A DNA stretch of 64,000 nucleotides from an uncultured Chloroflexia bacterium (GTDB lineage Bacteria; Chloroflexota; Limnocylindria; Limnocylindrales; CSP1-4). Below, in pieces: positions 9,100 to 56,548 of this stretch (positions within the stretch are counted from its first letter, which is position 1; each line of letters starts with the position of its first letter). The position numbers and the translations under genes were made by a program. Below the pieces are notes generated by a model that worked only from the letters and a program-made list of their open reading frames with translations, was not told the DNA's origin and ran no database searches. The stretch is from the NCBI GenBank assembly GCA_963819655.1, contig CAWFXA010000002.1, positions 416,001 to 480,000 of the forward strand. The letters run 5' to 3'.

Positions 9100-9373
9100 G
9101 GCGAATGCCGTATTGCCCCGACGGGGCCTTCGGCGTCAGGCTGACCGTGGTCGTCGCACGACCGCACCGTCACGGGGGGCGCGACGTGAACCTGCACGCG
9201 CGCTCGGCGCGTCGCGCCCCCCGCTCCGGTGCCCACGAAGCCATCGGCACGGTCCCCCAGCGTGCCCGGATCCGGATCAGCGCTCCTCCTCTGCCGATCC
9301 GGCGGCTCCCACGGCGAGGCGTCCCCCAGCGCCTCGCCGACCCCTGTCGTGACCCGTTCGAAGGCGTGCCCGC

Positions 9374-9382
9374 TGATAGAAT
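9374..9382 (+). promoter_or_regulatory. Extended -10 promoter (TGATAGAAT) upstream of the nuo operon
   Basis: TGnTAGAAT about 70 nt before the nuoA TTG; SD-like GAAGGGAG precedes the TTG. Confidence 0.6.
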
Positions 9383-9451
9383 GGCCGTGCGTGGAGGCTC
9401 CACGGAGCCACCCCTGCCCGCCGCCTCCGACCGGTCCCGAAGGGAGTTCGC

Positions 9452-9817
9452 TTGGAACAGCTCTGGTACGTCGTGGGCTTCGCCTTCGCCGGCGTGTCGT
9501 TCGTCTTCCTGACGATCGGTGCCGCGTGGTTGGTCTCACACCGCAATCGCGGCGACGTCCACAAGGGCCTGCCGTACGAATCGGGCATCGATACCTATGG
9601 CGATACGCACGGCCGGTTCGGGCTGTCGTTCTACATCTACGCCCTGCTGTTCGTGGCCTTCGACATCGAGGTGATCTTCATCTACCTCTGGGCGATCGTC
9701 TTCCAGGATCCCGCGCTGAACCCGGCGGCGCTGTTCGTGAGCATGGTGGTCTTCGTGGCGATCCTGCTCCTGGGCCTCGCCTACGCCTGGCGGAAGGGGG
9801 CCCTGACGTGGCGCTGA
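9452..9817 (+). CDS. nuoA: NADH-quinone oxidoreductase subunit A
   Basis: [22 protein letters not shown] and [10 protein letters not shown] motifs. Confidence 0.96.
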
Positions 9818-10563
9818 AGACGACACCGGATGGCCTCGGGGCCGGCCCCTCGGACGAGACCGCGATCTCGTCGGACGTCCCGGCCCAGCCCGGCCTCCCG
9901 GCGACCCGCCCGTCCGACGCTGTCGCGAATCCGATCGTCGTGCGGAACTCGCTCTGGCAGGCGGCGGATCCGTCCGCGTACGACGGCGGCCGCCCCACCG
10001 ACATCACCCACCTCGCGGAGCTCGAGGCGAGTGGCGCGGGCCGGCGCGACGATGCGCGCTGGAGTGGCGTCCTCGAGGTCATCCCCACCAAGGCCGACTA
10101 CGTGCTCGACCTCATCCGGATGAACAGCCTGTGGCCACTCCTGTCGGGGCTCGCGTGCTGCGCGATCGAGATGATGTCGGCGGCGACCTCCAAGAACGAC
10201 ATGGACCGGTGGGGCATGTTCCCGTTCCGGGCGAGCCCGCGTCAGGCCGACGTGCTCATCGTCGCCGGCACGCTGACGACGAAGATGGCCGGGCCACTGG
10301 TCCGCCTCTGGGAGCAGATGCCGGAGCCGAAGTGGTGCGTCGCGATGGGCGACTGCACGTGCTCGGGTGGCCGGTACAAGCGGAGCTACTCGACGGTCGA
10401 GGGGATCGATCGGGTCATGCCGGTGGACGTCTACGTCCCGGGCTGCCCGCCCCGGCCAGAGGGCCTCATCTACGGGATGATGAAGCTCCAGCAGCTGGTC
10501 AAGGACCGTCGCGGTCATTGGCCGGAGCGAGCCATCGGCCCGACCGTCCCCGAGCAGGTCTGA
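9808..10563 (+). CDS. nuoB: NADH-quinone oxidoreductase subunit B (N-terminal extension)
   Basis: [21 protein letters not shown] and [13 protein letters not shown] motifs. Confidence 0.96.
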
Positions 10564-10565
10564 CC

Positions 10566-11114
10566 GTGGACCGAGCCTTCAAGGCCCGCCTCGAGCGGCG
10601 GTTCGGCGAGCAGCTGACGGGCCCCATCCGGCAGCGCCACGACGAGACGGAGATCCGGATCGGGCCGGGCGACGTGACCCAGGTCATCACCGCGCTCCAC
10701 GACGAGCCGGAGTTCGGCTTCGAATTCCTGGCCGACCTGGCCGGGGTGGATACGGGCGACGTCATGCAGGTCGTGTACCACCTGTGGAGCGCGACCACGC
10801 CCGACTGGCTTCGGGTCATCGCCGACGGCCTGCCGCGCGAGGACCCGCGCGTCCCGTCGGTGACTTTCATGTGGAAGGGCGCCGAGTGGATGGAACGCGA
10901 GGCCTACGACATGTTCGGCATCACGTTCGAAGGCAATCGCGACCTGCGCCGCATCTACCTCCCTCCCGACTACACGAGCTTCCCTCTCCGAAAGGACTTC
11001 TACCTTCCGGACGACGCGGCCCGTTCCCCGGGCGCGGGCGTCCGACCCATGGAACGGACGCACACCCCACGCGAGACCCCGGCGACGGCGAACGTCCGTC
11101 GGGGCGGTGCGTGA
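10566..11114 (+). CDS. nuoC: NADH-quinone oxidoreductase subunit C
   Basis: DLAGVD, WMEREAYDMFGI.F.G and FPLRKDF motifs. Confidence 0.95.
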   Translation: MDRAFKARLERRFGEQLTGPIRQRHDETEIRIGPGDVTQVITALHDEPEFGFEFLADLAGVDTGDVMQVVYHLWSATTPDWLRVIADGLPREDPRVPSVTFMWKGAEWMEREAYDMFGITFEGNRDLRRIYLPPDYTSFPLRKDFYLPDDAARSPGAGVRPMERTHTPRETPATANVRRGGA

Positions 11115-11142
11115 CCTCCCGCGCGAACGGCAAGGACCTGCG

Positions 11143-12408
<1,266 letters not shown>

Positions 12409-12586: not shown

Positions 12587-13936
12587 ATGACTGTGATCGG
12601 GCGGTCGTGGAGCAGGCTGACGCTGCCGGGGAAGGTCGTGTTCACGGTCGTCCCGCTATTGCTGCTGCTGACGATCGGGGCGATCGCGCTGATCGTGATC
12701 TTCGGCCAGGCGATCGTCGACATCCTCGTCGCCAACCTGCCGATCGTCCGCTTCGTCGTCGCCGTCACGGTCATCCTGATCGCGACCGTCCCGACCGCGT
12801 TCCTGATCATCTACATGGAGATGAAGATCATCGCTCTGATGAATCTTCGGATCGGGCCGGACCGGGTCGGGCCGTTCGGGTCGCTCCTGTCAACGGTCCA
12901 CGGGTTGAAGGTCCTCATGAAGGAGGACTTCACGCCGACCGGCGCGGATTCGCTGGTCTTCACGTGGGCGCCGGTCGTCGTCTACCTCGCGAGCGTCCTG
13001 TCGCTGCTCGTCATCCCGTTCGCACCCGGCTTGTTCGGGTATGACCTCAATCTCGGGCTGCTGTATTTCTTCGCGATCGGCGGCCTGGCCGTGGTCGGCC
13101 TGCTGATGGCCGGCTGGTCGAGCTACAACAAGTACTCGCTCCTGGGCGGATTGCGCGCGGCGGCCCAGGTCATCAGCTACGAGATCCCGCTGACGCTGTC
13201 GGTCGTCGGCCTGATGCTCCTGGCCGGGACGATGAGCCTGAACACGCTCGTCGAGAACCAGACCGGCTGGTTCACCGACTGGTACATCTTCCAGCAGCCG
13301 CTCGGGGCTCTCATCTTCTTCATCGCGGCTACCGCCGAGGCGAACCGCACCCCGTTCGACCTGACCGAGGCCGACTCGGAGATCGTCGCCGGGTTCGCGA
13401 CCGAGTACTCGGGCATGCGGTTCGGGTTCTTCTTCTTTGCCGAGTACGTGAACGTGTTCATCGTCTCGGCCCTGTTCGTCACGCTCTTCCTGGGTGGCTG
13501 GAATGCGCCGTTCCCGTGGCCATGGCCGGTCGAGCTGAACATCGATCCAGCGTCGTTCAACATCGGCCTGCTGTTCATCCTCGGCCTGGTGCCGGTCGTC
13601 CTGACGCTGTTGTTCGGCGCGCCCTTCTACCTGCTGAACTCGCGCATCAGATGGTGGCAGGCGCTGCTCATCGGGTTCGTTCTTGCGAACCTGTTCATCG
13701 TCACGCTGCTCGGCGCGTGGGCGTACCTCGGACTGCCGTGGGTCGCCGGTATCCTCTGGTTCATGCTCAAGACCTACACGCTCGTGTTCACGTTCGTGTG
13801 GATGCGCGGCACCTTGCCCCGGGTCCGGATCGACCAGCTGATGGACTTCGCGTGGAAGTGGCTGCTGCCGGTGTCGCTGCTCAACCTGTTCGTGACGGCC
13901 GGCGCGATCGTCGTCATCAAGGGACTGGGTCGATGA
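12587..13936 (+). CDS. nuoH: NADH-quinone oxidoreductase subunit H (with extra hydrophobic segments)
   Basis: RIGPDRVGPFG, NKYSLLGGLRAAAQVISYE, NRTPFDL.EA..E and TLPRVRIDQLM motifs. Confidence 0.96.
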   Translation: MTVIGRSWSRLTLPGKVVFTVVPLLLLLTIGAIALIVIFGQAIVDILVANLPIVRFVVAVTVILIATVPTAFLIIYMEMKIIALMNLRIGPDRVGPFGSLLSTVHGLKVLMKEDFTPTGADSLVFTWAPVVVYLASVLSLLVIPFAPGLFGYDLNLGLLYFFAIGGLAVVGLLMAGWSSYNKYSLLGGLRAAAQVISYEIPLTLSVVGLMLLAGTMSLNTLVENQTGWFTDWYIFQQPLGALIFFIAATAEANRTPFDLTEADSEIVAGFATEYSGMRFGFFFFAEYVNVFIVSALFVTLFLGGWNAPFPWPWPVELNIDPASFNIGLLFILGLVPVVLTLLFGAPFYLLNSRIRWWQALLIGFVLANLFIVTLLGAWAYLGLPWVAGILWFMLKTYTLVFTFVWMRGTLPRVRIDQLMDFAWKWLLPVSLLNLFVTAGAIVVIKGLGR

Positions 13937-14610
13937 GCTTCGTCCCCGGCCTCGGCATCGTGAAGGGAATGGCCCTGACCCTTCGGCGCTTCTTCGAGCC
14001 GAAGGTCACGATCATGTATCCGGAGGTGCGGCTCGACGTCCCGCACAAGTTCCGCGGCCGTCTGCAGCTGCTCTACGACGAGTGGGGCACGCTCAAGTGC
14101 GAGACCTGCTTCCAGTGCGCCCAGGCGTGTCCGATCGAGTGTATCGACATGGGCGGCATCGACACGCGCGGCCGCTACCACGTCCACTGGGGAGCGCCCG
14201 AGACCTATGGCGAGCGACGCGAGGAATCGGCGATGCGCCGCTCGGGCCGGCCCGTCCCGGACCCCGCCTATCGGCCGTTCGAGCCGATCGCGATGGGCGA
14301 GGTAGACCGCGTCCTCGAGGAGTACGACCACGACCCGGCGCGGATGCTCGACATCCTCGAGGCGACCCAGGACGCTTACGGCTATCTCCCCGTAGCTGCC
14401 CTCAAGCGCATCAGCCACGCGACCGGCGCCTGGTACGCGATGATCTACGGTACCGCCAGCTACTACGCCCACCTGCGGTTTGAGCCGGCGAGCGCCAGCG
14501 AGCAGGCAGCGGCGGTCGCCGAGCATCGGCCAGCCGAGGGGACATACCTGTCTGCCCTCGGCGCGGCGCTCGAGGGAGGCGGTCGCCCGGGCGCGCCCGC
14601 CCGCGCCTGA
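13933..14610 (+). CDS. nuoI: Fusion of the NuoI N-terminal half (one CxxCxxCxxxCP) and the NuoE N-terminal helical domain
   Basis: VTIMYPE..FRGR..KCETCFQCAQACP, then NuoE-like ILEATQDAYGYLP..ISHATG..IYGTASYY. No second ferredoxin motif and no NuoE 2Fe-2S cysteines. Confidence 0.85.
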   Translation: MSFVPGLGIVKGMALTLRRFFEPKVTIMYPEVRLDVPHKFRGRLQLLYDEWGTLKCETCFQCAQACPIECIDMGGIDTRGRYHVHWGAPETYGERREESAMRRSGRPVPDPAYRPFEPIAMGEVDRVLEEYDHDPARMLDILEATQDAYGYLPVAALKRISHATGAWYAMIYGTASYYAHLRFEPASASEQAAAVAEHRPAEGTYLSALGAALEGGGRPGAPARA

Positions 14611-14612
14611 CG

Positions 14613-15908
14613 ATGGTGACCCTGCTCAAGACCCCGGCCAGTTGGCCGCGGATCCTGCTGGCCCGAGCCGGCGAGAAGGACCCCACCGACCTCGATGCCG
14701 CCGTCGCTGCCGGGGCCTTCGACGGCCTGCGGCGCGCGATCCGCGACCTCGGCGGGGCCGCCACGATCGCGACCATCGCGGCCTCCGGCCTGCGCGGGCG
14801 TGGCGGCGCGGGCTACCCGACCGGTGACAAATGGCGGACGGCGGCAGACACCGATGCCGACCGCCGGTACGTCGTCGCCAACGGCTACGGCGCCGACCCG
14901 GCGTCGCACACCGATCGAACGCTCATGCTGCGCGACCCGTTCGCGGTCATCGAAGGGACCGCCATCGCGGCCAGCGCCATCGGTGCGACCGAGGCCTTCA
15001 TCGCGGTCCGCGCCGAGGACGCCGACGTCGTCGCCCGGTTGTCTGCGGCGATCGGCGCGGCGACCGATGCAGGCTTCATCGGCGCCGACGTCCTCGGGTC
15101 GGGCCGTGACCTGTGGCTCACGGTCCGCCCGGTGCAGGGCGCATACATGCTCGGCGAGGAGACGGTCCTGCTCAAGGCGCTCGAAGGCAAGCGCGGCCAG
15201 CCCGAGCAGAAGCCACCGCATCCCGCCACTGTCGGCCTGTACGAGCGCCCGACGGTCGTCAACAACGTCCAGACGCTGGCCGCCGTGCCGTGGATCGTGC
15301 GCTCGGGCGCCGACGCCTACCGCGCGACCGGTTCGACCAGGTCGTCGGGCACCGTCCTCGTGCAGCTCCGGGCGCCCGGCAAGCAGGGCGTCGCCGAGGT
15401 CCCGCTGGGCACGCCGCTTCGCGACATCGTGAAGCTCGGCGGGAAGATGCCGGCCGGCCGGACGCTCCAGGCGGTGCTCATCGGCGGGCCGTCCGGCGGC
15501 CTGCTCCCGCCCGATGCGCTCGATACCCCGTACGACTTCGGGACGCTCCGCGAGGCGGGCGCCCATCTCGGCTCGGGCTCCGTTGTCGCGGTCGACGACC
15601 GTACGGACCTGCTCGAGCTGGTCGGGGTGCTGATGCGGTTCTGCGCGAACGAGGCATGCGGCAAGTCGATCCCCTGCCGCATCGGGACGAAGCGGCTGGC
15701 CGAGATCGTCGCCCGTCGCGAGGACGGGCTCCTCCGCCCGGTCGACACCCAGCTGGCGGCCGACCTGGCACACGACATCGTCGAGTCCGCCCTGTGCGAC
15801 CACGAGCGGCTCGCGACCCTCCCGCTCACGAGCGGGATGCGATACTTCGGGTCCGACTTCGACCCCGCCAACCGACCCCCGCCGGTCGCGACCGAGGCCG
15901 CCCGATGA
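14613..15908 (+). CDS. nuoF: NuoF-like flavoprotein subunit, degenerate
   Basis: SGLRGRGGAGYPTG.KW, GAY..GEET.LL..LEGKRG and PTVVNNV.T motifs; the NADEGEP motif and one N3 Cys are altered. Confidence 0.85.
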   Translation: MVTLLKTPASWPRILLARAGEKDPTDLDAAVAAGAFDGLRRAIRDLGGAATIATIAASGLRGRGGAGYPTGDKWRTAADTDADRRYVVANGYGADPASHTDRTLMLRDPFAVIEGTAIAASAIGATEAFIAVRAEDADVVARLSAAIGAATDAGFIGADVLGSGRDLWLTVRPVQGAYMLGEETVLLKALEGKRGQPEQKPPHPATVGLYERPTVVNNVQTLAAVPWIVRSGADAYRATGSTRSSGTVLVQLRAPGKQGVAEVPLGTPLRDIVKLGGKMPAGRTLQAVLIGGPSGGLLPPDALDTPYDFGTLREAGAHLGSGSVVAVDDRTDLLELVGVLMRFCANEACGKSIPCRIGTKRLAEIVARREDGLLRPVDTQLAADLAHDIVESALCDHERLATLPLTSGMRYFGSDFDPANRPPPVATEAAR

Positions 15909-18553
15909 CCGACACCCTGGCCCGCCCAGAGCGCCTGCCCTCCGGGGCCCCGACCGAGACGTCGGCGTCGCCGGACTCGCTCGCCGAGCGCCTGCTCGAC
16001 ACCCAGGCGCCACAGCGACCGCAGTCGACTCCGCGCATCCGGATCGAGGTCGATGGTCGCGTCGTCGAGGGGTTCGAGGGCCAGACGATCCTCGAGGTCT
16101 GCCGCGACAACGGCATCGAGATCCCGACGCTGTGCTACGAGCCAAAGCTGCCCGGGTTCGGGGCATGCCGGATGTGCGTCGTCGAGGTCGAAGGCGAGGA
16201 ACACCCGCCGATCTCGTGCTCGCGCTCGTGCGAGGACGGGATGAAGGTCGAAACGCAAACAGAGGAGATCCGTCGCCTGCGCCGCACCAACCTCGAGCTG
16301 ATCTTCTCCGACCACAACGCCTACTGCCTGCCGCCCTGCCAGAACAAGTGCCCGAGCCACATCGACATCCCGGGCTTCCTCAAGGCGAATGCCGAGGGCG
16401 ACTGGCGGGAGAGCACCCGCATCTTCAAGCGGACGATCCCCTTCCCGTCGGTGCTCGGGCGGGTCTGCCCGGCGCCGTGCGAGGAGCACTGCCGGCGCGA
16501 CGAGGTCGACGAGGCGATCGCGATCCGCGACACCCACCGCTACGCGGGCGACCAGGTCCTCAAGTCGATGCTCGACGAGGACGTCGATCCGCCCGTGCCG
16601 TTCGAGCGCCAGGCTCCGTCCGGGCGACGGGCCGCCGTCATCGGCTCGGGCCCGGCCGGCATGGCCGCGGCGTACTACCTGCTCATCGCCGGTCACGACG
16701 TCACGGTCTTCGAGCGCGACCCGTCGCCGGGCGGCATGCTCCGCTACGGCATCCCGCAGTACCGGCTGCCGAAGGTCGAGGTGCTCGAGGCCGAGTACGA
16801 GTCGATCTCGCGGCTCGGCGGCACGGTCGTCTGCAACGCCGGTCTGGGCCGAGACTTCACGCTCGACGACCTGACGAACCAGGGCTTCGATTCGGTCATC
16901 GTGGCGATCGGCTGCTACGACACGAACAAGCTCGGGATCCCCAACGAGGACGCCGACGGCGTCATCGACGGCCTCGAATACCTGCGAACGGCGACGCTCG
17001 GGCTGCCGTATCCGGGCCACGTCGGCAAGCGCGTCGTGGTGATCGGCGGCGGCTTCACCTCGATGGACTGCTCGCGGACGTCGATCCGCCAGGGCGCGGC
17101 CGAGGTCACGCTCGTGTACCGCCGCGACATGAAGGACATGCCCGCGGCCGACGAGGTCCACGAGGCGATCGAGGAAGGCGTCACCACGATCTTCCAGGCG
17201 GGCCCGACGCGCGTCATCACGAACCCCAAGACCGGAGCCGTGACCGGCGTCGAGTTCATCCGGATGCAGCTCGGCGAGCCGGACGCCTCCGGCCGGCGGC
17301 GCCCGGAGCCGGCATCCGGCACCGAATTCACGATCCCCTGCGATCGCGTGCTGCTGGCCATCGGTCAGGGTCCCGAGCTCGACTGGATCGGGACGCCCGG
17401 CAATGAGGGGCCCGAGGCGACGAAGCAGCGTCGTCTCAAGGCGGACGCGGTCACGTTCTGGACGGGCCGGCCCGGCGTCTTCGGCAGCGGCGATGTGCGG
17501 ATCGGCGCGGCCACGGTCGTCGAGGCGGTCGCAGAAGGCCGGCGCGCGGCCTACGCCGTGGACGCCTACATGAAGGGCATGGACCTCGACGCCATCCGCA
17601 CGCGCCAGACGCTGGCCGAGCCGCAGCCCGAGTTCCTCTCGATCGTGCCGTTCACCGGCGAGATCAAGGAGCCGCGCTATCGGATGACGCCACTGCCCGC
17701 GGAGGCGCGCAACGACAGCTACATCGAATACGAGCTGCCGTATACGCGCGAGGCGGCGATGGCGGAATCGACTCGCTGCCTGCAGTGCACGTGTGAGGCG
17801 ATCGGGTTCTGCGACCTGCGCCGGCTCGGGATCGAGTACGGCACGACCCTCCAGACGCTCGAGCCGCAGTACCACCAAGGCGCCGGCTATCGGAGCGTGA
17901 CCGAGAACCGGTTCACCGGCATCAACCACGACTACATCCGCGACGACTCCCATGCGTTCATCCTGCGCGAGCCGTCGCGCTGCATCGACTGCGGGCGCTG
18001 CGCGAACGTGTGCGCCGAGGTCGTCGGGGCGGCGTGCTACGACTTCATGCGCATCGGCTTCGACACGCTGGTCACGACGCCGCTCGACATGAGCCTCAAC
18101 GACACCCCGTGCGTGTCGTGCGGTCGCTGCGCGGAGACCTGCCCGACCGGCGCCCTGATGCCCAAGCCGCGCATCCTCGAGAAGTACGAGGTCGACGAGA
18201 GCCGCTGCATCCTGTGCGGCATCTGCGTCGACGCCTGCCCATACGACGCGCTGCGCGACGGTGCCGACATCGAGCTCGCCCACACCGGCCGCTCGGAGCC
18301 GACGATCGACCTCATGGCGCTCGCCGCGATCGACCGCGAGACCGAGGTGACCTACATCCAGCGCGAGCGCGACTGGCTCACCCGGGCGCGTGCCGAAGGC
18401 CGCGTGGTCGACCAGTCGCGACTGCTGCCGATGCTGCCCCCGGCGATCGATGGCGTGCCGAGCAACGGCGGACGCTCGAACGGGAACGGCCACGGTCACG
18501 GTCACGACGGTCATGGGGCGGTCGCCGCGCTCGGCCCTGGCCGGCACGAGTAG
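15905..18553 (+). CDS. NuoG-N/GltD-type FAD-NAD(P)H Fe-S flavoprotein fused to the NuoI C-terminal half
   Basis: 2Fe-2S domain (IPTLC..GACRMC..C); GltD-like PCQNKCP/LGRVCPAPCE; GSGPAG; GGGFTSMD..VYRR; two ferredoxin motifs; then YEVDESRCILCGICVDACPYDAL..GADIELA. Confidence 0.88.
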   Translation: MTDTLARPERLPSGAPTETSASPDSLAERLLDTQAPQRPQSTPRIRIEVDGRVVEGFEGQTILEVCRDNGIEIPTLCYEPKLPGFGACRMCVVEVEGEEHPPISCSRSCEDGMKVETQTEEIRRLRRTNLELIFSDHNAYCLPPCQNKCPSHIDIPGFLKANAEGDWRESTRIFKRTIPFPSVLGRVCPAPCEEHCRRDEVDEAIAIRDTHRYAGDQVLKSMLDEDVDPPVPFERQAPSGRRAAVIGSGPAGMAAAYYLLIAGHDVTVFERDPSPGGMLRYGIPQYRLPKVEVLEAEYESISRLGGTVVCNAGLGRDFTLDDLTNQGFDSVIVAIGCYDTNKLGIPNEDADGVIDGLEYLRTATLGLPYPGHVGKRVVVIGGGFTSMDCSRTSIRQGAAEVTLVYRRDMKDMPAADEVHEAIEEGVTTIFQAGPTRVITNPKTGAVTGVEFIRMQLGEPDASGRRRPEPASGTEFTIPCDRVLLAIGQGPELDWIGTPGNEGPEATKQRRLKADAVTFWTGRPGVFGSGDVRIGAATVVEAVAEGRRAAYAVDAYMKGMDLDAIRTRQTLAEPQPEFLSIVPFTGEIKEPRYRMTPLPAEARNDSYIEYELPYTREAAMAESTRCLQCTCEAIGFCDLRRLGIEYGTTLQTLEPQYHQGAGYRSVTENRFTGINHDYIRDDSHAFILREPSRCIDCGRCANVCAEVVGAACYDFMRIGFDTLVTTPLDMSLNDTPCVSCGRCAETCPTGALMPKPRILEKYEVDESRCILCGICVDACPYDALRDGADIELAHTGRSEPTIDLMALAAIDRETEVTYIQRERDWLTRARAEGRVVDQSRLLPMLPPAIDGVPSNGGRSNGNGHGHGHDGHGAVAALGPGRHE

Positions 18554-18555
18554 AC

Positions 18556-19149
18556 GTGCGCGCGAAGCTGCCCCAGATCATCTTCGCGCTCCTGATCATG
18601 GGCGCAGTCCTCGGCATCGCTGCCCTCCTGGTCGTCGTCCTCCACCAGGACTGGGAGGACGCGCTCCTGTGGATCCTCGGAGTCGTGATGCTGGGCGCGG
18701 GGCTCCTGGTCGTGACGATGCGCGACATCATCCGCTGCGGCCTGGCCATGATCGTCTGCTTCCTCGCGCTGGCCGGCATCTATGTCCTGATGGGCGTCCC
18801 GCTCCTCGGGGCGGCGCAGGTCATCGTGTACATCGGCGCGATCAGCGTGCTGGTCCTGTTCGCCATCATGCTGACCCAGACCAAGGACGCCCCGAGCCGG
18901 CTCGTGTTCCAGACCCAGGCCGGTCCGGCGGCGATCGCGGCGGTCGTGGTCGCGATCCTCATCGCCCTCGCCGTGGGCGCCACGGACTGGCATGAGGTCG
19001 CCCGCCGGGCGCGCCTGAGCACGACCGAGATGGCGCGGGTCCTGTTCGAGCAGTTCGTGTTCCCGTTCGAGATCGTCAGCGTGCTGCTGCTGGCCGCCGT
19101 GATCGGCGGCGTGTTCCTGGCCAAGCGCGAGCCGGGCGGTCCGTCGTGA
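18556..19149 (+). CDS. nuoJ: NADH-quinone oxidoreductase subunit J
   Basis: [20 protein letters not shown] and [15 protein letters not shown] motifs. Confidence 0.94.
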
Positions 19150-19463
19150 GCGACAGCCTCGACACCTACCTGATCCTGTCCGGGATCCTCTTCGCGATCG
19201 GCACGTTCGGCTTCCTCGCGCGGCGCAACGCGATCAGCATGCTCATGTCGATCGAGCTGATGCTCAACGCGGTCAACCTGACGATCGTGGCTTTCGGCCT
19301 GTTCGGGCCCCGCCCCGACGCGATCGCCCAGGGCGCGGTGTTCGCGCTGATGGTCATGGCGGTCGCTGCGGCTGAGGCGACGGTCGGGCTGGCGATCGTC
19401 ATCGCGATCTACCGCAACAAGAGGACTCCGCTAGTCGATGAGTACGACTCCATGAGGCAGTGA
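19146..19463 (+). CDS. nuoK: NADH-quinone oxidoreductase subunit K
   Basis: [20 protein letters not shown] and [11 protein letters not shown] motifs. Confidence 0.96.
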
Positions 19464-19485
19464 TGGGGCTGCGGCGGACAGTTCG

Positions 19486-19649
19486 GCGTGCCACCGGGCA
19501 GCCGATGGCGGCGTTGCCGACTGCGGGCGATCGCTCACGCATACCGCCCCGAGGCCTGAGGCGACGCCCCACGAGCCATCAGCCCGAGGGTTCGTGCGCT
19601 CGCTCCCGTCCTCGTCGGCGCCTTGCCCTCGGCTCCCCCGCTGACACGC
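19486..19649. repeat. Structured intergenic hairpin element, copy 3 (expanded apical loop)
   Basis: AGCCGA..GGCGTTGCCGAC..TCGCTCA-CGCA...TGCG-CTCGCTC..GTCGGCGCCTTG..TCGGCT; outer stem GCGTG/CACGC. Confidence 0.8.
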
Positions 19650-19704
19650 ACGGTAGTTCGGCAGACATGCACGGTCGTTCGGGCGGGCTGCCGGGCAGTT
19701 CCAC

Positions 19705-21696
19705 GTGACGATCGAGACGCTGCTGCCGCTCCTGCTCGTCCTGCCGATGGCGGGCTTCCTCATCACGGCGCTGATCGGCCGGCGGCTGGGCAAGCAGGCG
19801 CACTGGATCCCGGTCGGGGTCATCTTCCTGGCCTGGATCGTCGCGATGCTGGCGGTGTGGAACGTGCTGACAGGGGCGGCGCCCTTGCTGCCCGGCTCAG
19901 AGGACACGCACGGTTACGTCGTCGGGCCGTGGGAGTGGATCCCGGCCGGCGGCTTCCACGTCGAGCTCGGGATCCTGGTCGACCCGCTGACCGCCTGCCT
20001 GCTGATCGTCGTCACCACGATCGGCCTGCTGGTCCACGTCTACTCGATCGGCTACATGAGCCACGACCCCGGCTACTGGCGGTTCTTCGCGTACATGAAC
20101 CTGTTCATGTTCTCGATGCTGCTGCTGGTGCTCGCCGACAACTGGCTGGTCCTGTTCGTGGCGTGGGAGCTGGTCGGCCTGTCGAGCTACCTGCTCATCG
20201 GCTTCTGGTACCGCAAGCGGAGCGCGGCTCTTGCCGCCAAGAAGGCGTTCATCGTCAACCGGGTCGGCGATGTCGGGTTCGCCCTCGGGATCATGGCCAT
20301 CTTCCTGAACACGGGCACGCTGAACGTTCGCGAGTCGATCGAGATCCTGATCAACCCGACGCTCGTCGCCTTCCCGATCCCCGTCCCGATCGTCGCGCTG
20401 TTGGTCTTCGCCGGTGCCATGGGCAAGAGCGCCCAGTTCCCGCTCCACGTGTGGCTGCCGGACGCGATGGAAGGCCCGACTCCGGTGTCGGCGCTCATCC
20501 ACGCGGCCACGATGGTCAACGCCGGCGTGTACCTCGTGGCCCGTGCCAACCCGCTGTTCGCGGCCGCGCCGTCCACGATGGTCGTCGTCGCGGCGATCGG
20601 CATCTTCACGGCGATCCTGGCCGCGTCGATCGCGATGACCCAGACCGACATCAAACGGGTGCTCGCGTACTCGACGCTATCCCAGCTCGGCTACATGTTC
20701 GCGGCGCTCGGGGTCGGCGCGTTCACCGCGGCGATCTTCCACCTCATGACCCACGGCTTCTTCAAGGGCCTGCTGTTCCTCGGATCGGGCTCGGTCATCC
20801 ACGCCGTCCACGACGAGCAGGACATGCGCCGGATGGGCGGCCTGGCGAAGAGGATCCCCATCACCTACGCCACGATGCTCGTGGGCTCGATCGCGATCTC
20901 CGGGATCCCACCGCTTGCCGGATTCTTCTCGAAAGACGAGATCCTCGGCGAGGCCTTCAAGTTCGGCTTCTACTGGGTCTGGGCGGTCGGCCTGTTCGTG
21001 GCGCTGCTGACCGCGTTCTACATGTTCCGGCTCATGGGTCTGACCTTCTGGGGCGTGTTCCGCGGCCCAAAGGAGATCTGGGACCGCATCCACGAATCAC
21101 CGGCAGTCATGACCGTGCCGCTGATCCTGCTGGCGATCCCGTCGGTGCTCCTGGGCATCGCCCTCGGTCTGCCGTTCGGCGACAGCACCATCCACCGCTG
21201 GCTCGAGCCGGTGTTCCACCACGCGACCGAGATGCTCGCCTTGCCGCACGAGCCGTACGCCCTGTTCGGCATCGACGGCGGTCTGATCCTCGCCAGTGTG
21301 ACCGTCGCCGTGATCGGCGTGGTCCTTGCCTGGCGCTACTTCGGCGTCGAACTGGGCGGGTTGCGGCTGCCGGCCCGGCCGGAGGTCGTCCGCGAGATCA
21401 GCGCGAGGCCCGGTCTATCCTTCCTGTACCGCGCCTCGCTCAACAAGTGGTGGTTCGATGAGCTCAACCACCTGCTCTTCATCGTCATCGGCGGAAGGCT
21501 GGCGCAGGCGATCTGGTGGTTCGACCGCGAGGTCATCGACGGGACCGTCAACGGCATCGGCAGCGCGACCATCTCGGTCGGCCGCGGCCTTCGCCGCGTG
21601 CAGACCGGTCGGGTCCAGAACTACGCGCTCGGGATCGCCCTCGGGCTGATCGTGATGGCCGGGTCATACCTGCTTCTCGCGGGGAACGGCGGATGA
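19705..21696 (+). CDS. nuoL: NADH-quinone oxidoreductase subunit L
   Basis: YSIGYM, KSAQFPLHVWLPDAMEGPTPVSALIHAATMV and HLMTHGFFKGLLFL motifs. Confidence 0.97.
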   Translation: MTIETLLPLLLVLPMAGFLITALIGRRLGKQAHWIPVGVIFLAWIVAMLAVWNVLTGAAPLLPGSEDTHGYVVGPWEWIPAGGFHVELGILVDPLTACLLIVVTTIGLLVHVYSIGYMSHDPGYWRFFAYMNLFMFSMLLLVLADNWLVLFVAWELVGLSSYLLIGFWYRKRSAALAAKKAFIVNRVGDVGFALGIMAIFLNTGTLNVRESIEILINPTLVAFPIPVPIVALLVFAGAMGKSAQFPLHVWLPDAMEGPTPVSALIHAATMVNAGVYLVARANPLFAAAPSTMVVVAAIGIFTAILAASIAMTQTDIKRVLAYSTLSQLGYMFAALGVGAFTAAIFHLMTHGFFKGLLFLGSGSVIHAVHDEQDMRRMGGLAKRIPITYATMLVGSIAISGIPPLAGFFSKDEILGEAFKFGFYWVWAVGLFVALLTAFYMFRLMGLTFWGVFRGPKEIWDRIHESPAVMTVPLILLAIPSVLLGIALGLPFGDSTIHRWLEPVFHHATEMLALPHEPYALFGIDGGLILASVTVAVIGVVLAWRYFGVELGGLRLPARPEVVREISARPGLSFLYRASLNKWWFDELNHLLFIVIGGRLAQAIWWFDREVIDGTVNGIGSATISVGRGLRRVQTGRVQNYALGIALGLIVMAGSYLLLAGNGG

Positions 21697-23348
21697 CGAA
21701 CCCGTTCGGGATCCTCACGGTCGTGACGTTCCTGCCGTTGGTCGGAGCACTGGTCGTCGCGATCCTGCCGAGCCGTTGGACTCGCCCGATCGCGCTCGCG
21801 TTCGCGCTGGCAACGTGGGTGGTCTCGTTGATGATGCTGATCGGCTACCTGCCGAACCGCGCAGGCAGCCAGTTCCTCTTCCTCGAGGCGTTCGACTGGA
21901 TCCCGATCTTCGGCATCCAGTACAAGCTCGGCGTCGACGGCCTGTCCGCCGCCCTCGTCGTCCTCACGACGACGTTGACCTGGATCTGCATCCTCGCGTC
22001 GTGGGTCCCGATCCAGACCCGGATCAAGGAATTCATGATCTCCTTCCTCGTGCTCGAGGTCGGGATGATCGGAGTGTTCCTGGCGCTCGACCTCTTCCTC
22101 TTCTACATCTTCTGGGAGATCGTGCTCGTCCCGATGTACCTCATCATCGGGATCTGGGGCGGCGCCAACCGCATCTACTCGACGATCAAGTTCGTGCTGT
22201 ACACGCTGGTCGGGTCGCTGCTCATGCTCGTGGCGATCCTCGCGACAGCATTCGCCTACCAGTCGGCCACCGGCTCATGGACCGGCGCGTTCGACCTGGT
22301 CGCCCTCCGCGCGCACGTCCAGACCGTCGGCTTCGCGCCGGTCCTCCAGGTCGGGGCGTTCCTCGCGTTCTTCCTGGCGTTCGCGATCAAGGTCCCGATG
22401 TTCCCGTTCCATACGTGGCTGCCTGATGCGCACACCGATGCCCCGACCGCGGGATCGGTCATCCTGGCCGGCGTCCTGCTCAAGCTCGGGGCGTACGGGT
22501 TCCTGCGGTTCGCGCTGCCGCTCTATCCGGACGCGGCCCATACGTTCGCCCCGACGATCATCGTCCTGTCGCTCATCGCGATCATCTATGGCGCGATCGT
22601 CGCCCTCGTCCAGCCCGACCTCAAACGGCTGGTGGCCTACTCCTCGGTCAGCCACATGGGCTTCGTGACCCTCGGCACATTCGTGTTCACCGAGCAGGGC
22701 ATCCAGGGCGCCATCCTCCAGATGATCAACCACGGCCTGATCACGGGAGGCCTGTTCCTGCTCGTGGGCATCATCTATGAGCGAACCCACGACCGGACGA
22801 TCGCGAAGATGGGCGGGCTCGCGGCCCGGATGCCGCTGTGGGCCGCGACGCTCGGGTTCTTCGTGTTCGCGTCGGCCGGCCTGCCCGGGCTGTCCGGTTT
22901 CGTGGGCGAGTTCCTCAGCCTGCTGGGGACGTTCATCGTCAATCCGCCGGCCGCGGCGGTCGCGACGTTCGCCATGATCCTCGGGGCGGGCTATCTCCTG
23001 TACATGTACGGTCGGGTCGTCTTCGGCGAGGTGTCCGATTTCATCGTGGGCCTGGGGGGCCACATCACGGACATGACGCCGACCGAGATCCTGACGCTCG
23101 CGCCGCTGGCGACGCTGATCGTGGTGTTCGGCATCCAGCCGGGTCTCTTGCTGACGCTCGTGCAGGGTTCCGTCACGGACACCATCGAGGCTGTGCGTGA
23201 CGGGGTCCCGCTCCCCATCAGCACCGAGGTCGTCGTGATCGGCCTGGGGTTGGTCATCGTGCTCGTCGTCGCGCGCACGATCTCCGCCGCGCTGAGCTCG
23301 CGGTCAGAGCGGACCGGGGTCGTGACCGAAGGCGGAGCCGCGCATTGA
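21693..23348 (+). CDS. nuoM: NADH-quinone oxidoreductase subunit M
   Basis: GVDGLS, IKVPMFPFHTWLPDAH and LKRLVAYSSVSHMG motifs. Confidence 0.96.
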   Translation: MTNPFGILTVVTFLPLVGALVVAILPSRWTRPIALAFALATWVVSLMMLIGYLPNRAGSQFLFLEAFDWIPIFGIQYKLGVDGLSAALVVLTTTLTWICILASWVPIQTRIKEFMISFLVLEVGMIGVFLALDLFLFYIFWEIVLVPMYLIIGIWGGANRIYSTIKFVLYTLVGSLLMLVAILATAFAYQSATGSWTGAFDLVALRAHVQTVGFAPVLQVGAFLAFFLAFAIKVPMFPFHTWLPDAHTDAPTAGSVILAGVLLKLGAYGFLRFALPLYPDAAHTFAPTIIVLSLIAIIYGAIVALVQPDLKRLVAYSSVSHMGFVTLGTFVFTEQGIQGAILQMINHGLITGGLFLLVGIIYERTHDRTIAKMGGLAARMPLWAATLGFFVFASAGLPGLSGFVGEFLSLLGTFIVNPPAAAVATFAMILGAGYLLYMYGRVVFGEVSDFIVGLGGHITDMTPTEILTLAPLATLIVVFGIQPGLLLTLVQGSVTDTIEAVRDGVPLPISTEVVVIGLGLVIVLVVARTISAALSSRSERTGVVTEGGAAH

Positions 23349-24844
23349 ACGGCACCGACATCAGCGCGATCGCGCCGCTCATCGCCGCGGTGCTGACCGC
23401 GGCCGCGGTGCTGGTCGTGGACCTCGTCCGACCCGGCCGCAGCGGCCCGGCCGTCGCGACCGCCCTGATCGGGCTGGCGATCACTGCGTTCGTCACGATC
23501 CAGGTCGGCATGAGCACGCTGACGGCGTTCAACGGGACCTACAAGGTCGACGCGCTCAGCACGTTCCTCGACGTCCTGTTCATCTCGATCGTCGCCATGA
23601 CCATCGTCTTCGCGCCCGACTACCTGCTGCCGCGCAACCTGCCGATCGCCGAGTTCGCGACGGTCCTCATCTTCGCGATGAGCGGGGCCATGCTGATCGC
23701 CGGGTCGGCGGACCTGCTGCTGCTCTTCCTCGGGCTCGAGCTGATGGTGCTGCCGGGCTACCTCCTGGCGGGCTATCACAAGACCGACTCGTATTCGACC
23801 GAGGGGGCCATCAAGTACTTCCTCCTCGGCTCGTTCAGCTCGGCGATCTTCCTGTTCGGCGTGGCCTTCATCTGGGGCCTGACGGGGACGACGCTGATCA
23901 ACAGCACCGACCCGGCCCAGCCCGGCGTCGCGCAGGCGCTCGCGTCGGTGGTGGCTGGGACCGCGCCGCTGTCGGCGGGTCTGGCGATCGGGCTCGCGTT
24001 CCTGACCACGGGCGTCGCGTTCAAGATCGCCGCAGTCCCGTTCCACTACTGGACCCCGGACGCGTACCAGGGCTCGCCGACGCCGATCACCGGATACCTG
24101 TCGGTCGGACCGAAGATCGGCGCATTCGCGCTGATCCTGCGGCTCTTCGTGGAGGCGCTCGGGCCGCTGGCCGCGTGGTGGCTGCCGGTCATGATCGTCC
24201 TGGCCGCTCTGACGATGACGCTCGGCAACCTCGTCGCGCTCACCCAGGACAACGTCAAACGGATGCTCGCGTACAGCTCCATCGCCCACACCGGGTACAT
24301 GCTCGTCGGGCTGGCGGCGTACGCCGGCGGCCAGGTCCTCGGACTCGAGGGGCTCCTGTTCTACGGGGCGGCCTACACGTTCATGAACCTCGGGGCGTTC
24401 GCGGTGGTGTCGGCCGTCCAGAAGAGGGCGGGCGTCACGTCGTCGCTCGAGAACTTCTCGGGGCTCGTGCGCCGTGAACCGGGCCTGACGATCTTGATGA
24501 CCCTGTTCCTGTTGTCGCTGGTCGGCATCCCGCCGCTCGCCGGGTTCTGGGCGAAGGCCTATGTCATCCTCGCGGCCGTGCAGGCGGGCGGATCGCTGAC
24601 CGTGCTGGCGGTCCTCGTCGTCCTGAACGCCGCGGCGGCGGCGTTCTACTACCTGCGGGTCGTCGTGTACATGTGGATGCGCGACCCCGTCACAGACACG
24701 CCGCCGCTCACCCATGGGGCGCTCCTGTGGGGCGGGCTCGCCACCGCGACGGTGCTCACGCTGGTGTTCGGGCTGTTCCCATCGGTGTTCGAGATCGTGC
24801 AGCACGCCGCCGCCGCGATCTCGACCCTCCCGGGCGGGGGCTAG
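23345..24844 (+). CDS. nuoN: NADH-quinone oxidoreductase subunit N
   Basis: EGAIKYF, FKIAAVPFHYWTPDAYQG and KRMLAYSSIAH motifs. Confidence 0.96.
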   Translation: MNGTDISAIAPLIAAVLTAAAVLVVDLVRPGRSGPAVATALIGLAITAFVTIQVGMSTLTAFNGTYKVDALSTFLDVLFISIVAMTIVFAPDYLLPRNLPIAEFATVLIFAMSGAMLIAGSADLLLLFLGLELMVLPGYLLAGYHKTDSYSTEGAIKYFLLGSFSSAIFLFGVAFIWGLTGTTLINSTDPAQPGVAQALASVVAGTAPLSAGLAIGLAFLTTGVAFKIAAVPFHYWTPDAYQGSPTPITGYLSVGPKIGAFALILRLFVEALGPLAAWWLPVMIVLAALTMTLGNLVALTQDNVKRMLAYSSIAHTGYMLVGLAAYAGGQVLGLEGLLFYGAAYTFMNLGAFAVVSAVQKRAGVTSSLENFSGLVRREPGLTILMTLFLLSLVGIPPLAGFWAKAYVILAAVQAGGSLTVLAVLVVLNAAAAAFYYLRVVVYMWMRDPVTDTPPLTHGALLWGGLATATVLTLVFGLFPSVFEIVQHAAAAISTLPGGG

Positions 24845-51230: not shown

Positions 51231-52349
51231 CTAGGACGTCGTCCGGACGGGCATCACGACATGGACATAGCGGTCATCGCCGACCGGCTTGAAAACGCCC
51301 GGTGACAGCGGCCCATTGAGTTCGAGGGCGAACTGGTCGGCCGCCACGTTCGTCAGGACATCCGCCAGGTAGCGGGCGTTGAAGGCGATCGTCGTGTCGT
51401 CGCCTTCGACCGCCGCCTCGACCTGGCCGACGTGGTCGCCGACCTCGGCGTTGGCGCTGACCGTCACGCCCGCGTCGCCGTCACCGCCGATCTGGAGCTT
51501 GACGATGTTCGCCAATTCGTGGGCGATCAACGCGGCCGGCCGGACCGCTCGCAGGAGCTCCTCCCTGTCGAGCACCGCTCGGGTCGCGTGCGCCTGCGGC
51601 ATGACCTGCTGGTAATTGGGGAACTGCCCATCGATCAGGCGGCTGACCAGGTCGATCCCATCGAGATGGAACAGGACCTGGTTCCGCGCGCTGGCCAGGA
51701 CGACCTCGACCGGATCGTCGACATCCGCGAGCACGCGCGCGAGCTCGTTGAGTGCGCGGGCCGGGATGACCACGCTGGTCTCCGGGACCGGGTCCAGGAT
51801 CGGCAGGGTCTTGACGGCGATCCGGTAGTTGTCGGCCGCGGCCAGCGTCAGCTGGTCGCCCTCGAACCGTGCGAGCACACCGGTCAGGATCGGTCGCGCC
51901 TCGTCGCTCGCGGCTGCGAAGGCCGTCTCCGCCAGGGCGCGTCGAAGGACGTTCTGCGCGATGCGGGTGGTCGGCCGCTCGCCGGCCGTCTGGATGGCCG
52001 GGAACTCCTCGTCGCTGATGCCCTTGATGTGCGTCTGGAACCGACCGGCCTTCACATGCAATGTGTCCCCGGCGGTCACCTCGAGCTCGACCTTGTCGCC
52101 GGCCGGCAGTGAGTTCACGAGATCGGTCAGGAGCTTGGCCGGGACAGTGGTCGCGCCGTCCTCGTCGATCTTGCCCGGCACCCAGTAGGTGATGCCGATC
52201 TCGAGATTCGTGGCGGTCAGCTTGAGACCGGCGTCCTCGGTCTTGAGTAGGACATTGGCGAGGACCGGGAGCGTGCTCCGGCTCGAGACCGCCCGGCTGA
52301 CGACGGACAGGCCGCGCGCCAGATTCTCCTGCATGACCGAGAGTCTCAC
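51231..52349 (-). CDS. dnaN: DNA polymerase III beta clamp
   Basis: STLPVLANVLL, ATNLEI, RPILTGV, SRLIDGQFPNY, AFNARYL and VVMPVR motifs. Confidence 0.97.
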   Translation of the reverse strand: MRLSVMQENLARGLSVVSRAVSSRSTLPVLANVLLKTEDAGLKLTATNLEIGITYWVPGKIDEDGATTVPAKLLTDLVNSLPAGDKVELEVTAGDTLHVKAGRFQTHIKGISDEEFPAIQTAGERPTTRIAQNVLRRALAETAFAAASDEARPILTGVLARFEGDQLTLAAADNYRIAVKTLPILDPVPETSVVIPARALNELARVLADVDDPVEVVLASARNQVLFHLDGIDLVSRLIDGQFPNYQQVMPQAHATRAVLDREELLRAVRPAALIAHELANIVKLQIGGDGDAGVTVSANAEVGDHVGQVEAAVEGDDTTIAFNARYLADVLTNVAADQFALELNGPLSPGVFKPVGDDRYVHVVMPVRTTS

Positions 52350-52760
52350 GTCGGCTTCACTCCGTCTCGCATCGCTCGAGGCCGCATCGCGGGTGACGGC
52401 AGGTCGGGTCGGACGGAGGTCCGGAGCGATCCCGACCGGGGTCGCAGTGGTTGGTGGGTATCTTCTCTCTTTCTTCTTACTCCGTCATCACCGTAGTAAC
52501 GGTGTGGAGGCCGGGGACGGCCGTGCGCGATCGTTCGGGCGGAGCGGGTGGACGGGATGTCGGATGGCGTGGACAAGATCGCGTCGTTCGGGGAGGTCAC
52601 GGTCGACAGGCTGGGGACAGGCGGCCGTCGGTCGGCGACGGACAGGTCGGGAACGCCCGCGCGTCCACATGCGACGAGGAGTGCTCCACGTGGTTTCCGC
52701 GCTTCGCCGGCCACAGCGGGCGTCGCGCCGGCGCGCCGTGTTCGTCCGACGACCCCGCCC
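52350..52760. other. Probable oriC (dnaA-dnaN spacer)
   Basis: DnaA-box-like TGTGGAGG (52503), CGTGGACAA (52569), GTCCACA (~52663) and TGGGGACA; the minus strand reads TCCACA-CCGT-TACTAC then an AT-rich tract (52459-52480). Confidence 0.7.
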
Positions 52761-54149: not shown

Positions 54150-54511
54150 TCGTTCGATAGGACCTGCGTACGGGGTTGACGGTTGATGAGATGCGGCGGG
54201 CACGGTCCCGGGATGAGTGCGAGGGCGGCGGACCGTCCGATCGACGTCCCTCCGACGAGGCCGGACCACCGCTGCCTGCGCCCCCTCCACGAGGCCTGCT
54301 GGCGTCTCCCGCGTACGTCTCCGGCGCCGAGGGCCCGGAGAGGATAGCACCGCGCCAGACGCCGTCGCAAGGCGATTCCCACATACTCCCCAGGGGTATC
54401 CGTGCGAATGCCCGGAGCTGGCCTCCGTGACCGCTCGGCCAGGGTCCTCCGTCGATGATCCGGTGATCCCCCACGTCGGCCCGTGAGGGTGAGACTCGGG
54501 CGATCCCCCGT

Positions 54512-54541
54512 TTGACACCCCTTCTGGCGAGGTCCTATCAT
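54512..54541 (+). promoter_or_regulatory. Sigma70-type promoter for the rpmH operon
   Basis: TTGACA-n18-TATCAT. Confidence 0.65.
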
Positions 54542-54658
54542 CCGCCGGACGACGACGCGCCATGTGCCCGCAGGGCACCGGCGCGTTTGCGTGCCTCTAG
54601 GGGTAGACGGAGCGACCGTTCCCCGAGGTCGGATCGAGAGGATCACAGGACCGCCCGG

Positions 54659-54793
54659 ATGAAGCGAACCTACCAGCCCAAGAAGCGCCATCGCGCCAAG
54701 GAGCACGGCTTTCGCGCCCGCATGAAGACCACGGCGGGGCGCCGCATCCTTGCCGCGCGGCGAGCTCGGGGTCGGAAGCGACTGACGGCCTGA
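54659..54793 (+). CDS. rpmH: 50S ribosomal protein L34
   Basis: [27 protein letters not shown]. Confidence 0.98.
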
Positions 54794-54825
54794 CAAGCGA
54801 TCGCGGCATATCCACGCCGCGACTC

Positions 54826-55364: not shown

Positions 55365-55379
55365 CGAGGCCGCCCGCCC

Positions 55380-56546: not shown

Positions 56547-56548
56547 CC

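Follow-up and report, generated by a model that had tools for sequence, protein, structure and literature searches.

We analyzed a 64,000-nucleotide stretch of DNA from an uncultured Chloroflexia bacterium of the Limnocylindria (GenBank assembly GCA_963819655.1, contig CAWFXA010000002.1, positions 416,001 to 480,000 of the forward strand), here called the window, which encodes a respiratory complex I with an unusual electron input module. The window has a G+C content of about 70%, and the names of its nearest protein relatives point to Candidatus Limnocylindrales (Chloroflexota). The complex I (nuo) operon occupies about 9.45–24.84 kb of its plus strand, where genes for NuoA, B, C, D, and H are followed by three unusual proteins and then by NuoJ, K, L, M, and N. 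We refer to the three proteins as IE (13933–14610, 225 amino acids), which appears to join the N-terminal half of NuoI to part of a NuoE-like protein (E'), F' (14613–15908, 431 amino acids), which corresponds to the core of NuoF/StnB, and G' (15905–18553, 882 amino acids); all three are on the plus strand. Family matches are from Pfam, NCBIfam, and Protein Data Bank (PDB) chain searches, and nucleotide (nt) coordinates of motifs were derived from residue numbers. All of the sequence features listed in a preliminary description of this DNA were recovered at their positions.

The nuo operon and its three unusual genes

The operon encodes ordinary quinone and proton-pumping modules, as judged by Pfam and PDB scores for NuoA, B, C, D, H, J, K, L, M, and N. 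These core subunits are encoded together on the plus strand, and all ten had a Pfam match: nuoA (9452–9817; Oxidored_q4, 6.8e-30), nuoB (Oxidored_q6, 8.7e-27, at residues 310–420 of the listed open reading frame (ORF) 9229–10563, with the real start downstream of nuoA, near 9.8 kb, and not fixed), nuoC (10560–11114; Complex1_30kDa, 1.2e-37), nuoD (11107–12408; Complex1_49kDa, 4.8e-87, and PDB 49-kDa/Nqo4 chains up to 3e-95), nuoH (12587–13936; NADHdh, 1.7e-105), nuoJ (18553–19149, start approximate; Oxidored_q3, 1.2e-32), nuoK (19146–19463; Oxidored_q2, 1.4e-26), nuoL (19705–21696; Proton_antipo_M, 1.2e-88, plus Proton_antipo_N), nuoM (21696–23348, start approximate; Proton_antipo_M, 3.8e-77), and nuoN (23345–24844; Proton_antipo_M, 1.5e-67). 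The translation of NuoB shows CC, GDCTC, and GCPP, which we take to be the ligand pattern of cluster N2, and that of NuoD shows HPSTHG and GYLHRG, presumably the His/Tyr motifs of the quinone site. We take the gene order D-H-...-J to be that of 11-subunit nuo operons, unlike the order D-E-F-G-H-I-J of Escherichia coli. An 82-amino-acid ORF in the spacer between nuoK and nuoL (19460–19708, plus strand) had no family match and no plus-strand match in the 80 related loci described below, and is probably not a gene; the length of this spacer differs among genomes.

The first part of IE (about nt 13957–14151) matched NuoI. The NuoI profile TIGR01971 aligned to IE residues 11–74 with its positions 1–63 of 121, PDB TYKY/NuoI chains matched residues 8–72, and hhalign paired residues 4–82 with residues 7–87 of E. 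coli NuoI at a probability of 97.9%. This part comprises the N-terminal helix and a single CxxCxxCxxxCP motif (14098–14133). E', the C-terminal half of the protein, retains the helical N-terminus of NuoE/StnA (about nt 14290–14493). Only positions 2–63 of 145 in the Pfam model 2Fe-2S_thioredx were matched, and IE residues 119–186 aligned to just the N-terminal 65–70 residues of the NuoE-type chains 9bov_C, 8oh5_A, and 9n5u_C. Both Pfam and PDB comparisons thus agree with the earlier statement that the NuoE part has no 2Fe-2S cluster-binding domain, and hence no cluster N1a. A frameshift was considered as the cause of the truncated NuoI and NuoE and rejected, as the other two frames across 14082–14827 hold only Arg/Pro-rich nonsense and other genomes have intact ORFs in this same arrangement. 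An AlphaFold2 model of IE (alignment A2) had a mean predicted local distance difference test score (pLDDT) of 56.2; it was confident in the NuoE-like helices only, with residues 20–116 below 50.

F' matched the Pfam families Complex1_51K (1.9e-40) and NADH_4Fe-4S (5.1e-17), and alignment to solved relatives confirmed that two canonical NuoF motifs have been replaced. Residues 90–96 read NGYGADP (nt 14880–14900), where solved NuoF/HydB/StnB-type chains have NADEGDP and E. coli NuoF has NADEMEP, and residues 349–355 read CGKSIPC (nt 15657–15677), where relatives have CGKCTxC or CGWCTPC. The protein spans residues 117–521 of the 602-residue NfnB and 102–512 of the 584-residue StnB, and it lacks the Bfu-type N-terminal 2Fe-2S domain and C-terminal 2x[4Fe-4S] domain of the B subunit.

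G' is the largest of the three proteins and contains several cofactor-binding domains. By Pfam, these are Fer2_4 (residues 44–119), Fer4_20 (141–220), Pyr_redox_2 (243–545), and Fer4 motifs (686–784). The 2Fe-2S domain lies at nt 16034–16261 and is followed at nt 16313–17539 by an H-x3-C element together with a GltD-type Fer4_20 and flavin adenine dinucleotide (FAD)/NAD(P)H domain (PF14691, PF07992, and PF00070), a segment that includes HNAYC..PPC...CP (residues 137–150), GGGFTSMD (381–388), and YRR (405–407, nt 17117–17125). Downstream are CLQCTC.....C, of the form CxxCxCx5C (residues 625–636, nt 17777–17812), the NuoG-type motifs A (nt 17981–18013) and B (nt 18110–18145), the apparent C-terminal half of NuoI (about nt 18170–18304) with a third motif, C (nt 18206–18241), and a His/Gly-rich tail (residues 859–871, nt 18479–18517). 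NCBIfam returned NF009454 at 4e-165 and the GltD-type models TIGR01318 and TIGR01316 at 1e-89 to 1e-91. Neither Pfam nor NCBIfam detected a molybdopterin domain in G', which ends after its ferredoxin motifs, and both agree with the preliminary description of a NuoG-like subunit that lacks this domain and carries an inserted GltD-like FAD domain. We also observed that the tail directly precedes nuoJ, and that some database proteins continue into a NuoJ domain (P0072, P0461, P0512, and P0525). An AlphaFold2 model of G' (alignment A3, 24 rows) had a mean pLDDT of 52.9, and its C-terminal 320 residues were below 50.

The most unusual structural feature of the operon, overlooked in the preliminary description, is an apparent split of NuoI, with the N-terminal half fused before E' and the C-terminal half fused behind G'. 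TIGR01971 matched G' residues 756–800 with its positions 71–115 of 121, and NuoI/TYKY chains from the PDB matched residues ~757–810. Across all six frames of the window, CxxCxxCxxxCP occurs three times only, once in IE and twice in G', and the window therefore lacks an intact nuoI. Between nuoH and nuoJ, exactly where nuoI would lie in the order H-I-J, the insert has one NuoI half on either side. The dicluster domain of large subunits of the Stn/Hyd/Fdh type, 9bov_A among them, is matched by motifs A and B of G' together, which would leave the IE motif and motif C as the two unpaired halves. In the 2x[4Fe-4S] fold, each motif supplies three cysteines to one cluster and one to the other, so neither NuoI half could hold a cluster alone. 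A predicted complex of G' residues 750–850 with IE residues 1–112 (alignments A3 and A2) scored 0.24 and 0.22 against a mark of 0.32, in runs made without control folds, and these scores weigh neither way on binding. Overall, the locus looks like a stnABC-like operon that was inserted into nuoI of an 11-subunit nuo operon and then trimmed.

Relationship to transhydrogenases, complex I, and other donor modules

Comparisons with solved structures place E', F', and G' closest to subunits of Stn/Nfn-Bfu transhydrogenases (PDB 8OH5, 9N5U, and 9BOV) rather than to NuoEFG. The best PDB matches of G' were 9bov_A (6.1e-159), NfnA (9n5u_A, 3.7e-143), and StnC (8oh5_C, 1.1e-140), with continuous alignment over residues ~44–780, from the 2Fe-2S domain to just past the second NuoG-type motif. 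For F', E values were 1.6e-93 against NfnB (9n5u_B) and 1.4e-90 against StnB (8oh5_B), compared with 1.3e-79 to 3.3e-69 against NuoF chains of complex I. We judged the kinship of F' by PDB bit scores as a proxy for a tree, and these ranged from 317 to 303 for NfnB, 9bov_B, StnB, and HydB but were lower for NuoF of mycobacteria (271), E. coli (244), and Thermus (237). E' matched best to 9bov_C, StnA (8oh5_A), and NfnC (9n5u_C). The kinship with Stn-type transhydrogenases that had been proposed earlier thus holds for all three proteins. The accompanying description of the module as a rewired NuoEFG does not, since all three score higher against Bfu-type (Stn/Nfn/Hyd) subunits and, apart from the insert, the genes are arranged as in an 11-subunit operon.

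The architecture of G' follows that of the large subunit of Stn/Nfn-Bfu enzymes, in which a 2Fe-2S domain, an inserted GltD-type FAD/NADPH domain, and a NuoG-type dicluster domain are combined, and it shares their YRR and cluster motifs. According to excerpts of PMC10482914 and PMC12018979, structure 8OH5 is StnABC and 9N5U is T. sibiricus NfnABC, respectively. Excerpts of the former place the GltD part of StnC at residues 102–565 within a NuoG-like frame, and the GltD domain of G' similarly lies inside an H-x3-C ... CxxCxCx5C motif. Several differences from these enzymes were also apparent. Alignments with chains of 1172–1178 residues stop at their residues 698–701, so the FdhF-like C-terminal domain is lacking in the 882-residue G', where the C-terminal half of NuoI takes its place. 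E' is without the 2Fe-2S domain, whose deletion from StnA abolishes bifurcation in Stn in the same excerpts (PMC10482914). In F', the two additional cluster domains are missing, as are an N3 cysteine and two acidic NAD-loop residues. Finally, the module sits within a nuo operon and is fused to NuoI halves, and is therefore presumably membrane-bound and non-bifurcating.

Compared with the canonical complex I of E. coli and T. thermophilus, the ten core subunits are ordinary, NuoI sequence is present in two pieces, and the folds of NuoE, NuoF, and NuoG are related to E', F', and G'. Unlike in the canonical enzyme, the gene order is D-H-[insert]-J, NuoI is not one polypeptide with two CxxCxxCxxxCP motifs, and there is no N1a, no canonical N3, no NADH loop, and no molybdopterin-like domain, while a GltD-type FAD site has been added. 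This GltD-type domain is the only canonical-looking nucleotide or flavin site of the input arm. Likeness of motifs suggests that it is of the NADPH type: its YRR aligns with the YRR of 9bov_A and NfnA, and for the second Rossmann segment of G', all 12 of 12 solved relatives came from NADP(H) enzymes, judged by molecule names.

Exchange of the electron donor module is known from other members of this enzyme family. Cyanobacterial NDH-1 uses ferredoxin and archaeal Fpo uses F420H2, both as 11-subunit complex I-like enzymes. The operon resembles these in that the core order A-B-C-D-H-I-J-K-L-M-N reappears when the insert is removed, with a donor module swapped on a constant quinone and proton-pumping core. 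It differs from NDH-1 and Fpo in that the donor module is a pyridine-nucleotide flavoprotein of Bfu/GltD origin, covalently tied to both NuoI halves. A closer parallel to the fusion site comes from Mbx-like operons, which in excerpts of Degli Esposti (2015, PMC4758237) have a GltD-related flavoprotein where NuoI would be and encode complexes of the Mrp/Mbx type that do not use quinone and are said to reduce NAD(P)+. The feature in common is a NAD(P)H flavoprotein of the GltD family, attached at the NuoI position to a membrane module of the complex I family. NuoE-, NuoF-, or NuoG-like parts are not described for them in these excerpts, and it is by this description only that we set the two apart. 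Within the full-text literature searched, with subscription journals and supplements outside its scope, this operon type was undescribed; the account of Mbx-like operons came closest to it.

Conservation in Limnocylindria and Thermoleophilia

The locus is conserved in related Limnocylindria. Using the C-terminus of G' in a scan of one genome per species, we found at least 494 stretches that encode a relative, and compared the best 80 loci, which had 88–99% identity. None of the 80 showed a different gene order. All eleven genes from C to N were covered (at least 80% in a single high-scoring segment pair) in 29 of the 80, the others being short contigs or split matches, and intact ORFs of the right length were found for IE in 53, F' in 58, and G' in 65. 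Two of these loci (L001 and L070) are on separate contigs of one metagenome-assembled genome. Each contig has its own G' gene, and in the query part these are 99% and 90% identical to the window; the pair could represent two operon copies, a strain mixture, or a binning artefact. Several other loci had bin labels of Saccharimonadales, Patescibacteria, Methylomirabilota, or Sulfomarinibacteraceae, and mis-binning is the probable cause.

Cluster and nucleotide-binding motifs were strongly conserved across these loci. The cysteine motif of IE was located in 62 loci and was identical in 61 of them, the other having a stop codon, and IE residues 39–110 were almost invariant among orthologues. In G', motif B was identical and the cysteines of CLQCTC and motif A were kept in all 80 loci, GSGPAG, GGGFTSMD, and YRR were conserved among orthologues, and each YRR column was at least 90% conserved in the 79 of 80 loci where the region was found. 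Together with the NADP(H) affiliation of the solved relatives, the last result agrees with the earlier proposal that the GltD domain is the input site. Within the tail of G', residues G860, H865, and H881 were at least 90% conserved in Limnocylindria-type orthologues.

The altered motifs of F' are conserved as well. Among 24 aligned orthologues, A94, D95, P96, C349, G350, K351, I353, P354, C355, and C395–L400 were invariant, N90, G91, Y92, and G93 were at least 90% conserved, and position 352 was S or T in every row. Intact NuoF motifs in orthologues had been named in the preliminary description as grounds for refutation, but none of the 24 restored the canonical NADE..PG loop or the second N3 cysteine. 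F' was otherwise the least conserved subunit, with a mean identity to the window of 72.2% across 29 loci compared with 86.5% for G' and 86.4% for NuoD. Most F' orthologues (e.g., those of L012, L019, and L022) end in a conserved ELDDHLLRSSCPAGVC-type segment with Cys and His, possibly left over from the Zn-bound linker of StnB/HydB. In the window (15827–15908) and in L001, L002, L007, L010, and L016, a short Pro-rich tail replaces this segment.

Ratios of nonsynonymous to synonymous substitution (dN/dS, NG86) in comparisons with the three closest loci (L001, L016, and L002) were 0.06–0.12 for G', 0.07–0.14 for IE, and 0.12–0.17 for F', and the overall range for F' was 0.12–0.46. Ratios were higher in more distant pairs, where dS is near saturation. 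These values show F' to be under purifying selection. With dN/dS below 1 and orthologues in as many as 80 other genomes carrying the same changes, the unusual motifs are real rather than due to chance or sequencing error.

The same G' architecture is shared by Limnocylindria and Thermoleophilia, a class of Actinomycetota. Close relatives filled the results of near-length protein searches, and a search of representatives, in which identity fell to 47% or less outside the family, gave a distant member, P0141 (816 amino acids), with the same C-terminal NuoI half. A search with the C-terminus of P0141 found 120 proteins of about 825 amino acids among the matches listed, those with an organism name being labelled Thermoleophilia or Actinobacteria, and four of the 120 also had a NuoJ Pfam domain. 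The motif of the NuoI C-terminal half was present in all 110 Thermoleophilia-type rows of at least 740 amino acids, and YRR in 95 of these 110. Thermoleophilia-type proteins are without the His/Gly tail and have a different conserved tail with GWQW. We built an unrooted FastTree phylogeny from the part of G' up to motif B, excluding the NuoI part, in which eight Limnocylindria-type and 15 Thermoleophilia-type proteins were separated from the first 45 of 111 full-length StnC/Fdh-like representatives with a support of 100. A single origin of the fusion is the simplest reading of this joint grouping.

Proposed function and alternative readings

The interpretation that we favor, with a probability of roughly 0.6, is that the operon encodes a complex I with ordinary quinone and proton-pumping modules and an input module that goes back to the operon of a soluble transhydrogenase of the Stn/Nfn-Bfu type, inserted into nuoI. 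The best reading of the predicted subunits is a proton-pumping, possibly reversible NADPH:menaquinone oxidoreductase, menaquinone being what we take to be the quinone type of these phyla; we infer the NADPH specificity, the proton pumping, and the direction of operation. NADPH would reduce the FAD in G', and electrons would pass through the two GltD clusters to the His/Cys cluster and on to the NuoG-type clusters of motifs A and B. From there, they would pass to the pair of clusters in a NuoI put together from both half-proteins, then to N2 in NuoB and finally menaquinone, and this electron transfer would drive proton pumping. Run in reverse, the enzyme could make NADPH from quinol at the expense of the proton-motive force.

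On this interpretation, F' and E' would no longer bifurcate and would act as a scaffold maintained by selection, strapping G' to the N-terminal half of NuoI. Excerpts of PMC10482914 describe StnA binding StnB and StnB binding StnC; in the same manner, E', tethered to the NuoI half, would bind F', and F' would bind G'. The preliminary description had called NuoEF vestigial or structural. The first term does not fit the dN/dS of F' or the conservation of its altered motifs, whereas a selected scaffold stands as a proposal.

More tentatively, and at somewhat less than even odds, we propose that these operons represent a new class of complex I in Limnocylindria (Chloroflexota) and Thermoleophilia (Actinomycetota), defined by a stnABC-like insert in nuoI, a NuoI made of two polypeptides, and a GltD-type FAD/NADPH domain as the only working substrate site, through which the NADPH pool would be coupled reversibly to the quinone pool and the proton-motive force. 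Complex I is viewed as an NADH-oxidizing enzyme, and the natural exceptions known to us swap the donor for ferredoxin or F420H2. If true, a natural proton-pumping NADPH:quinone oxidoreductase would change models of redox balance and reverse electron flow for two very common groups of soil and freshwater bacteria. It would also mean that a soluble bifurcating module was disarmed and grafted onto a membrane pump, and that a 2x[4Fe-4S] ferredoxin fold can persist as two separate polypeptides. The cluster branch involved would serve as the main electron path, although the corresponding C1/C2 side branch is termed a non-functional remnant in excerpts on Stn (PMC10482914). Current database annotation of these nuo operons lists a "ferredoxin", an "NAD(P)H-dependent oxidoreductase subunit E", and a "FAD-dependent oxidoreductase", and no NuoI.

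Three groups of observations weigh against parts of this interpretation, and the first concerns the split of NuoI. Given E. coli NuoI alone, both BLASTP (E value 2e-11) and hhalign (97.9%) pair G' residues 732–801 with NuoI residues 56–132, a span that covers both NuoI motifs, and so place motif B of G' on NuoI motif 1 and motif C on motif 2. A whole NuoI-like core inside G' is therefore a live rival, in which motifs B and C would form a complete NuoI-like 2x[4Fe-4S] domain and the N-terminal half on IE would supply nothing more than the NuoI helix that contacts the membrane, plus a cluster motif that is leftover or extra. T. thermophilus Nqo9, which aligns over residues 50–171 of the C-terminal piece of G', also fits this rival, as does the 20-residue spacing of motifs B and C, such spacing between cluster motifs being typical of small ferredoxins. 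However, A and B align as a pair, and pairing B with C would leave motif A and the IE motif without partners, even though all four cysteines are kept in both (80 of 80 and 61 of 62 loci, respectively). The best NuoI-profile match on G' covers the second half only, and the near-invariance of IE residues 39–110 also counts against this rival. We consider an unsplit NuoI unlikely on balance.

The second group of observations concerns F', which may still house a working flavin site. The motifs GRGGAG (with its glycine-rich loop), GAYxLGEET, (K/R)PPxP, NVQT, and GGPSGG are at least 90% conserved, and the Asp corresponding to StnB D186 and Nqo1 E97 is retained and invariant. F' could accordingly be an active flavoprotein that binds flavin mononucleotide and a three-cysteine cluster completed by the conserved Asp or His beside its last cysteine, so that it offers a second entry or exit site and the complex is a dual NADH/NADPH dehydrogenase or a transhydrogenase coupled to the proton-motive force. 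The invariant C395-D-H-E-R-L and the purifying selection on F' are consistent with such activity. On the other hand, the NADEGDPG loop has Tyr and Gly where two acidic residues are expected, Ser and Thr alternate at the position of the second N3 cysteine in a manner unlike that of a ligand, and no N1a, B2, B3, or B4 cluster domains are left. The low conservation of F' relative to G' and the loss of the C-terminal Cys/His segment in the subclade of the window also argue against an active site, and we regard this possibility as improbable.

The third group comes from Thermoleophilia, where 15 of the 110 proteins are without GGG/YRR. These include a coherent GDG subclade (P0141, P0408–P0419, and others) in which GDGFAA.E replaces GGGFTAMD. 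Members without YRR must have another donor or a dead site, and the sequences of the GDG subclade suggest that it may have lost its NAD(P)H site or may use another donor. A related question is whether the GltD-type site uses NADH, or both nucleotides, in which case the complex, despite its unusual head, would function as an ordinary NADH:quinone oxidoreductase. The operon has no canonical NuoF, and its carriers are, we assume, probably aerobic heterotrophs that need to oxidize NADH. The conserved alignment of YRR with that of NADPH enzymes and the NADP(H) affiliation of all 12 solved relatives of the segment make NADH use similarly improbable. NuoE, NuoF, and NuoI do look degenerate when each is read alone, but a decaying or misassembled locus without function has almost no likelihood given the same architecture with intact ORFs in 53–65 of 80 loci, dN/dS well below 1, and its presence in a second phylum.

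Additional genes in the window lie outside the operon. Directly upstream of nuoA is a gene of the family Methyltransf_28 (PF02636; 7774–9099, plus strand, E value 2.8e-52), a family that we take to include NDUFAF7/MidA, a mitochondrial factor in complex I assembly that methylates the 49-kDa subunit. Its product may be a bacterial complex I maturation factor tied to the operon. Further downstream, positions 51231–57577 contain dnaN (51231–52349, minus strand), dnaA (52761–54578, minus strand), a yidC-like gene (55380–56546, plus strand), and a jag/khpB-like gene (56549–57577, plus strand), and the replication origin region is therefore placed about 30 kb from the nuo operon. A transfer-messenger RNA gene at 62835–63210 on the plus strand was detected by Rfam (RF00023, 120.9 bits) and was not reported by ARAGORN.

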